Shown here: positions 50,108-50,490 of the stretch, in pieces
Numbering within the stretch: the first letter of the stretch is position 1
Layout of the letters: every line of letters begins with the position of its first letter
Assembly: GCF_003334385.1 (NCBI RefSeq)
Contig: NZ_QOWN01000004.1
DNA from: Escherichia coli
GTDB taxonomy: Bacteria; Pseudomonadota; Gammaproteobacteria; Enterobacterales; Enterobacteriaceae
Direction: 5' to 3' (one strand)
Length of the DNA: 64,000 nucleotides
Notes under the pieces: generated by a model
Told to the model about the DNA's origin: nothing
Database searches by the model: none
The model's input: only the letters and a program-made list of their open reading frames with translations
Position numbers and translations under genes: made by a program

Positions 50108-50233
50108 ATGATGAAACGCCTTATCGTTCTTGTTTTGCTTGCCAGCACGCTGCTCACGGGCTGTAACACCGCTCGCGGTTTCGGCGAAGACATCAAACAT
50201 CTCGGCAACTCCATCTCTCGCGCTGCCAGCTAA
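50108..50233 (+). CDS. ecnA: Entericidin A lipoprotein, 41 aa ([41 protein letters not shown])
   Basis: Hand translation; lipobox LTGC; below ORF-track cutoff. Confidence 0.85.
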
Positions 50234-50343
50234 TTTTTCTTCTCTTCCGAAAAATCATCAGATTCCCATCATTTTTGGCGATGTTGTCTATTATTAATTT
50301 GCTATAGGCAAACATAAATAACATTACCTAAAAGGAAGACGTT

Positions 50344-50490
50344 ATGGTGAAGAAGACAATTGCAGCGATCTTTTCTGTTCTGGTGCTTTCAACAGTATTA
50401 ACTGCCTGCAACACCACGCGTGGCGTTGGTGAAGACATTTCTGATGGCGGTAACGCGATTTCTGGCGCAGCAACGAAAGCGCAGCAATAA
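50344..50490 (+). CDS. ecnB: Entericidin B lipoprotein, 48 aa ([48 protein letters not shown])
   Basis: Hand translation; lipobox LTAC; paralogous to ecnA. Confidence 0.85.

Follow-up and report, generated by a model that had tools for sequence, protein, structure and literature searches.

Entericidin genes ecnA and ecnB of Escherichia coli: conserved lipoprotein paralogues with a reported, unproven toxin/antidote label

Two short open reading frames of 41 and 48 aa lie in tandem in a 64,000-nucleotide stretch of E. coli DNA (the window). Both escape a 60-aa ORF filter, as the preliminary description pointed out when it called them the entericidin lipoprotein genes ecnA and ecnB and a reported antidote/toxin-like pair. 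Are these frames genes, are they the entericidin genes, and do their products behave as a toxin and its antidote?

The region from 49200 to 51300 was read directly and every ORF of at least 20 aa was listed. The two frames are on the + strand, exactly where they had been placed, and are base-for-base identical in extent to RefSeq CDSs of the E. coli K-12 MG1655 record (locus L001; its coordinates plus 47,899 give window coordinates; Table 1). Their RefSeq products are 'lipoprotein antitoxin entericidin A' (WP_000977757.1) and 'lipoprotein toxin entericidin B' (WP_000239596.1). A stretch of about 1.7 kb around the pair shows 100% DNA identity to MG1655 and was found in every one of the 5,426 complete E. 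coli genomes searched. Flanking genes in the MG1655 record are epmB, efp, sugE, blc and ampC, and in the window, too, the pair lies between efp and gdx (sugE), as described. The K-12 locus numbers are presumably b4410 (ecnA) and b4411 (ecnB).

Family models give the same identity. EcnA scored 114.9 bits against the NCBIfam EcnA equivalog NF007319 (curated cut-off 86) and EcnB 121.9 bits against the EcnB equivalog NF007487 (cut-off 94), with E-values of 1e-33 and 6e-36. Each peptide falls well under the cut-off when scored on the model of its paralogue, so the models specifically tell A from B. Both also match the full 20-position model of Pfam PF08085 (Entericidin EcnA/B family; E = 7.6e-06 and 5.9e-07), beginning at residue 21 in EcnA and 24 in EcnB, two residues past Cys19 and Cys22. 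In length, too, they are typical of the family, whose precursors of ~40 to 55 aa have the motif right after the lipobox Cys. Pairwise BLASTP aligned the two peptides with 55% identity over 44 columns (E = 4e-14), bearing out the suggestion that they are paralogues.

Table 1. Features of the ecnA-ecnB region, in window coordinates
Feature	Position	Strand	Remarks
efp	49490-50056		upstream of ecnA; 188-aa ORF
GC-rich hairpin without U-tract	50060..50093	+	directly past efp stop codon; 15 nt upstream of ecnA
ecnA	50108..50233	+	41-aa prolipoprotein, entericidin A; exact RefSeq CDS
ecnA-ecnB spacer	50234..50343	+	110 bp, 31% GC
-10-like pause motif TGCTATAGG	50300..50308	+	read in sequence; putative assignment
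ecnB Shine-Dalgarno AGGAAG	50333..50338	+	AGGA core ends 7 nt before ATG
ecnB	50344..50490	+	48-aa prolipoprotein, entericidin B; exact RefSeq CDS
predicted MicA 5'-domain pairing site	50345..50375	+	spans ecnB start codon and first 10 codons
ecnB intrinsic terminator	50496..50533	+	12-bp stem, 4-nt loop, then TGTTTTTTCT
sugE (= gdx)	50666-50983		downstream of ecnB; ORF

Frames this short might be open by chance, and a loose match to the lipobox is indeed common, being passed by 9 of the 544 ORFs of 25 to 60 aa in the window. For this reason the lipobox expression cannot carry the argument alone, and the evidence rests instead on the family matches and on the exact coincidence with annotated genes. 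The E-values above, substitutions that are almost all synonymous, peptides conserved between genera, detection of EcnB by mass spectrometry (MS; PMC12529367) and of ecnB mRNA on Northern blots (PMC3551931) all stand against chance frames, a reading that is already refuted and retains only a negligible probability. It is virtually certain that the ORFs are, in identity and anatomy, the known ecnA and ecnB of E. coli K-12. The finding is correct, yet already known: this is the type locus of the entericidin family, the same locus, with no difference, as that of Bishop et al. (1998, J Mol Biol 280:583).

Both precursors have the three parts of a lipoprotein signal, a positively charged n-region, a hydrophobic h-region and a lipobox of the form [LVI][ASTVI][GAS]C (in the style of PROSITE PS51257). 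In EcnA the signal peptide comprises residues 1 to 18 and the lipobox is LTGC, leaving a 23-aa mature peptide with predicted lipidated Cys19; the signal peptide of EcnB comprises residues 1 to 21, with lipobox LTAC, predicted lipidated Cys22 and a 27-aa mature peptide. The n-regions contain K/R and are followed by an uncharged hydrophobic stretch (MMKR...LTG before the Cys in EcnA, MVKK...LTA in EcnB), and EcnA gives an additional weak match to Pfam LPAM_1 (E = 0.023). The preliminary description had named a missing lipobox or a lack of homology to entericidins as grounds for giving it up; the LTGC and LTAC lipoboxes it reported are there, and so is the homology.

Asp at position +2 of a lipoprotein acts as a Lol avoidance signal, and other lipoproteins are sorted to the outer membrane. 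The residue at +2 is Asn, not Asp, in both entericidins and in all six orthologues, so by this standard rule an outer-membrane destination is expected. Lgt would add the lipid to each prolipoprotein, LspA would cut off the signal peptide and Lnt would N-acylate Cys19 or Cys22, and both mature lipoproteins would be sent to the outer membrane via Lol. In UniProt the lipidation of EcnB Cys22 is an assertion 'by curation'; intact EcnB does not elute in top-down MS, which fits lipidation without proving it (PMC12529367).

The mature peptides share the core CNTxRGxGEDI..G..IS.A, which is the 20-residue Pfam Entericidin motif. The helical hydrophobic moment is 0.59 in EcnA (reached by 0 of 2000 shuffles) and 0.41 in EcnB (reached by 0.2% of shuffles). 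As shuffled peptides rarely or never match these moments, a short lipid-tethered amphipathic helix is a plausible form for both. The net charge of mature EcnA is +1, plus a His, and that of EcnB is -1. These opposite charges come from systematic differences between the paralogues, K/Q-H-L and R/H in EcnA against S-D-G and G in EcnB. A PDB sequence search with the entericidins returned zero matches and hence no solved structure.

Conservation of the locus is nearly complete. At least 80% of the 521-bp stretch from 50040 to 50560 is present in 5,415 of the 5,426 complete E. coli genomes. Six alleles were compared, five that were fetched (96.9 to 99.4% identity) and that of the window. Among these, ecnA has 12 synonymous codon changes and one nonsynonymous (Thr14Ala, in the signal peptide), while the two changes in ecnB are both synonymous; all five strains share one EcnB protein accession. 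Both mature peptides are invariant over the six alleles. This pattern of codon changes indicates that both genes are under purifying selection.

The proportion of variable columns is 10.3% in ecnA, as against 1.4 to 3.2% in efp, ecnB (substitutions) and sugE. The diversity of ecnA takes the form of a divergent, almost wholly synonymous haplotype. Gene conversion by ecnB was considered as its source and rejected, because the alternative and K-12 alleles each match ecnB at four of the nine variant sites tested.

The same gene order, efp-ecnA-ecnB-sugE-blc, is shared by E. coli, Salmonella and Klebsiella. EcnB is nearly identical in the three; neither the lipobox Cys nor the core NTxRGxGEDI..G..IS.A varies. 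An alignment of six sequences from these genera has 15 invariant columns, which include the lipidated Cys, the Asn at +2 and the core T-x-R-G-x-G-E-D-I...G..I-S.A. The Salmonella and Klebsiella orthologues of EcnA, with 44 and 43 aa, are annotated just as 'entericidin A/B family lipoprotein'. One difference is an extra gene for a LuxR-type regulator, which lies on the opposite strand in the ecnB-sugE interval of Salmonella and is absent from E. coli and Klebsiella; we take it to be the ecnR of the Citrobacter and plasmid literature.

A search of plasmid records, from which the Salmonella and Klebsiella orthologues came, gave no sign of ecnAB mobility. The plasmid matches were all typed as non-mobilizable, except the Salmonella record pPJT1-452kb, and several were records of 0.37 to 5.4 Mb that carry the chromosomal neighbourhood.

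The GC-rich hairpin past efp folds with -22.6 kcal/mol (z = -2.54) and was missed by the terminator scan because it has no T run; its role may be that of a leaky terminator for efp or of a stem that stabilises the RNA. The Shine-Dalgarno match of ecnA is weak, with an anti-Shine-Dalgarno duplex of only -3.2 kcal/mol. At least some ecnA transcripts would come from efp by read-through of this hairpin without a U-tract, and with its weak Shine-Dalgarno ecnA would be poorly translated. EcnA has no mention in the main text of the MS study in PMC12529367, which would fit weak expression of ecnA.

The spacer before ecnB is poor in GC by comparison with the two genes (48 to 54%). In vitro, sigma-38 RNA polymerase transcribes from the ecnB promoter and the sigma-70 enzyme does so only poorly; the initially transcribed region of this promoter has a -10-like pause element, with an OmpR operator overlapping the pause site (PMC5389655). 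Within the spacer just one sequence, TGCTATAGG, closely matches the extended -10-like consensus TGcTATA(A/C)T. Comparison of this motif with the consensus from PMC5389655 would put the ecnB transcription start near 50300-50302, and the promoter and OmpR operator would likewise lie in the spacer. A scan of the spacer for the sigma-70 consensus found no promoter, which is to be expected of a sigma-38-type promoter and is not evidence of absence. The anti-Shine-Dalgarno duplex of ecnB (-5.6 kcal/mol) is stronger than that of ecnA.

MicA, a small RNA of envelope stress that targets outer-membrane proteins, has been shown experimentally to repress the mRNA of ecnB in E. coli, and the ecnB mRNA seen on Northern blots is a discrete one (PMC3551931). 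The MicA sequence was checked, being found with 100% identity between luxS and gshA (Rfam RF00078, 83.9 bits). The predicted duplex of its single-stranded 5' domain with the start of ecnB has -18.9 kcal/mol; four of 500 shuffled targets were as good, and the site ranked 20th among 1,022 background windows. Predicted pairing of MicA with the ecnA leader was at background level (-12.3 kcal/mol). ecnB is also induced by a LolCDE inhibitor, which does not induce ecnA, and as a sigma-S gene it shares its regulation with osmB, osmY and katE (PMC5105897).

The ecnB transcript has a clear 3' end. The terminator stem extends from 50496/50497 to 50523 and the U-tract TGTTTTTTCT to about 50533; it folds with -21.4 kcal/mol (z = -4.75), a stability equalled by 0 of 200 shuffles. 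The terminator at 50499..50529 in the preliminary description falls within it. Between ecnA and ecnB the terminator scan called no terminator-like site, so there may be some read-through from ecnA into ecnB. The two genes probably do not form one tight operon: ecnB has its own sigma-38 (RpoS) promoter and is under negative control by OmpR and MicA, and its transcript ends at the strong terminator. Further downstream, before sugE (gdx), is a guanidine-II riboswitch (50602-50648; 50.4 bits, gathering score 32), a separate known unit that is common to the E. coli, Salmonella and Klebsiella loci.

Classical toxin-antitoxin modules include type II systems such as MazEF and type I systems with membrane peptides such as Ibs/Sib. 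ecnA and ecnB resemble them in being small adjacent genes, of which one is reported to be toxic when over-expressed and the other protective, and the reported toxic product EcnB is, as in type I systems, a small membrane-active peptide. Unlike classical modules, both products are secreted lipoproteins and paralogues of each other, the genes have separate promoters and loss of the antitoxin is tolerated. To our knowledge, the pair has no labile antitoxin and no autoregulation. Among Pfam toxin families the sole match was to Ibs_toxin, at a noise level (E = 2.5).

A contiguous ecnA match of at least 80% is missing from seven of the 5,426 genomes (sensitive blastn), whereas ecnB is present over at least 80% in 5424 and missing from two. 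In strain 21AR0303, a blood isolate from New Zealand, IS1 is inserted in codon 32 of ecnA and ecnB is intact. The insertion replaces the last nine residues of EcnA (…DIKHLVMLPTY); the shortened protein still has 13 residues of the mature peptide and may be active. In Z142-1 an IS5-like element lies inside ecnB and ecnA is intact, while UPEC129 lacks both genes. The UPEC129 loss is a 508-bp deletion and was microhomology-mediated.

Interruption of ecnA only is found in about six genomes and of ecnB only in one, small numbers of which one case each was inspected. This is the reverse of what an addiction module predicts. In such a module, loss of the antitoxin with the toxin intact should be intolerable, and here it is tolerated. 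Tolerated loss of ecnA may, however, be uninformative if ecnB is too tightly repressed.

The toxin/antidote label is reported but unproven. RefSeq product names, and notes such as 'acts as an antidote to the bacteriolytic entericidin B', present the pair as a classical toxin-antitoxin or programmed-cell-death module, with EcnB as a bacteriolytic toxin and EcnA as a dedicated antidote needed for survival. In the summary given in PMC7296081, Bishop et al. 1998 reported bacteriolysis on over-production of EcnB and its counteraction by ecnA in cis; ecnA and ecnB are also adjacent, paralogous and almost always co-inherited. The word 'reported' in the preliminary description is thus accurate (Bishop et al. 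1998 via PMC7296081; PMC5389655), but the label itself is weakly supported and is doubted in PMC7296081. The Keio collection has an ecnA deletion mutant, a point raised by Knoke et al. (PMC7296081), 21AR0303 is a natural isolate with ecnA disrupted beside an intact ecnB, and ecnA is interrupted more often than its partner. Healthy cells in minimal medium contain up to ~70,000 copies of EcnB each, and the level is more than 100-fold higher in a clpP mutant, with no lysis reported (PMC12529367), the same study whose main text leaves EcnA unmentioned. To this are added the induction of ecnB without ecnA by a LolCDE inhibitor (PMC5105897) and the separate promoters and regulation of the two genes (PMC5389655, PMC3551931). 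Many Proteobacteria, moreover, have an ecnB-like gene without ecnA, and a homologue from Agrobacterium tumefaciens, Atu8019, is not lytic (PMC7296081). The existing evidence weighs heavily against a classical module, which is improbable.

Atu8019 is, like EcnA and EcnB, a small lipoprotein with an entericidin domain (53 aa, lipidated Cys22) and, unlike the E. coli pair, the product of a solitary gene without an ecnA partner (PMC7296081). It was shown experimentally to be surface-exposed on outer-membrane vesicles (OMVs), to mediate OMV docking and to be non-lytic in cells and liposomes (PMC7296081). It lends some weight to another view, in which the reported lysis would be an artefact of over-producing a small lipoprotein, and EcnB (perhaps EcnA too) would be made in abundance under RpoS as a lipoprotein of envelope stress whose function is non-lytic, for example to stabilise the outer membrane, dock OMVs or mediate adhesion. 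The very high physiological copy number of EcnB with no reported lysis (PMC12529367), its sigma-S co-regulation with osmB, osmY and katE (PMC5105897), the repression of ecnB by MicA (PMC3551931) and adhesion/biofilm phenotypes of Moraxella and Xanthomonas mutants (PMC7296081) point the same way. Against it, a secreted 3-kDa EcnB homologue of Enterobacter C6-6 is reported to be bacteriolytic towards Flavobacterium (Schubiger 2015, as cited in PMC7296081), a generic over-production artefact does not predict the specific counteraction by ecnA in the 1998 study as it is summarised there, and the literature searched held no protective ecnB phenotype in E. coli. On balance such a non-lytic role is rather unlikely. 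A related proposal is that 'toxin/antitoxin', as used in RefSeq and EcoCyc, is a misnomer, EcnB being an abundant RpoS-induced outer-membrane lipoprotein whose physiological function in the envelope is non-lytic, and EcnA a weakly expressed tuning paralogue; this is put forward tentatively, and we lean against it. If it were true, the slight excess of ecnA disruptions would reflect stronger selection on EcnB than on EcnA, and the advance would be only modest as the doubt is already in print (PMC7296081).

The preferred explanation, held with rather more confidence than doubt, is that ecnA and ecnB are real, expressed paralogues and encode a conditional membrane-active lipopeptide. EcnB may perturb the membrane in a dose-dependent way, and EcnA, the oppositely charged paralogue, may modulate EcnB, possibly by mixed assemblies. 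That this dose-dependent perturbation, modulated by EcnA, is the mechanism, with no classical addiction module involved, is given about an even chance. In order of preference come the conditional membrane-active lipopeptide, then the non-lytic stress lipoprotein and, at the bottom, a true addiction module.

The description of ecnA and ecnB goes back to 1998; almost every complete E. coli genome searched has them annotated, and curated family models cover both. Finding them again has no discovery value, and is useful as a positive control: a reader without tools picked out real genes of 41 and 48 aa. EcnB is among the E. coli small proteins most often detected by MS (PMC12529367), and among titles since 2019 in a limited literature set none contained the word entericidin. 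The one live point, nearly three decades on, is function. A conditional membrane-active lipopeptide accounts better than an addiction module for what population genomics and proteomics show.

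Both entericidin genes can be lost or interrupted in natural isolates. Among 5,426 complete E. coli genomes, contiguous ecnA was absent from seven and ecnB from two. In UPEC129, ecnA, ecnB and their terminator are all missing (locus L007, 3014-3121) and the efp hairpin is joined straight to the guanidine-II riboswitch. Both breakpoints fall at copies of a 7-bp direct repeat, ACCATCA, whose spacing in K-12 is 508 bp; this indicates that the genes were lost by microhomology-mediated deletion. Strain 21AR0303 carries IS1 in codon 32 of ecnA, with ecnB intact (locus L008, 1501-2659), and strain Z142-1 carries the IS5-like ISEc35 in ecnB, with ecnA intact (locus L009, 1387-2593). 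Each gene has been hit separately by a natural IS insertion.

Nucleotide diversity in ecnA was far above that of neighbouring genes, with 10.3% of columns variable among six alleles (the window and five others), and in 675 genomes ecnA was only 90 to 95% identical. The variation (50146-50218) consists almost entirely of synonymous third-position C/T changes forming one haplotype. Gene conversion from ecnB to ecnA was tested as a source of this diversity and was unsupported; ecnB was matched four times by each allele. At the other end of the pair, a short tandem repeat, GCAGCAATAAGCAATAACGG, contains the ecnB stop codon. Some strains have a 6-bp insertion here (for example, locus L004, representing the 527-bp alleles), despite which the annotated EcnB protein is the same.

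A stable hairpin lying right behind the efp stop codon, and ending 15 nt upstream of the ecnA start, has no U-tract, which suggests that ecnA may be transcribed by read-through from efp. The ecnA start itself is weakly ribosome-bound. Further Rfam matches in the window, counted when above the gathering score, are listed with the features of this locus.

Features of the ecnAB locus and further Rfam matches in the window
Feature	Position	Strand	Remark
naRNA4 copy	1-71	-	Rfam; truncated by window edge
naRNA4 copy	95-171	-	Rfam
sRNA STnc630	5837-6002	+	Rfam, 181.8 bits
tRNA (one)	36345-36417	-	Rfam
Hairpin behind efp	50060-50093	+	-22.6 kcal/mol
ACCATCA, first copy	50085-50091
Tandem repeat at ecnB stop	50476-50496
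ACCATCA, second copy	50593-50599
Guanidine-II riboswitch	50602-50648	+	50.4 bits (gathering score 32)
sugE/gdx	50666-50983	+
blc	50980-51513	-

In Salmonella, a gene for a LuxR C-terminal-type regulator (locus L011, 2420-3007, minus strand) lies between ecnB and sugE, whereas the E. coli and Klebsiella loci are without it. According to its label, the Salmonella record is a conjugative IncHI2A plasmid of 452 kb, yet this neighbourhood in it is otherwise chromosomal (epmB-efp-ecnAB-sugE-blc-frd). Several further PLSDB 'plasmid' matches, typed as non-mobilizable, are records of 0.37 to 5.4 Mb with this same neighbourhood.

Gdx is a guanidinium exporter and its pairing with the guanidine-II (mini-ykkC) riboswitch is already known. 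In the window the riboswitch lies directly 5' of sugE/gdx, which converges with blc in a 4-bp overlap of 3' ends (50980-50983). The riboswitch is likewise found ahead of sugE at the loci of Salmonella, Klebsiella and UPEC129. The riboswitch and sugE/gdx form a unit that is independent of ecnAB.
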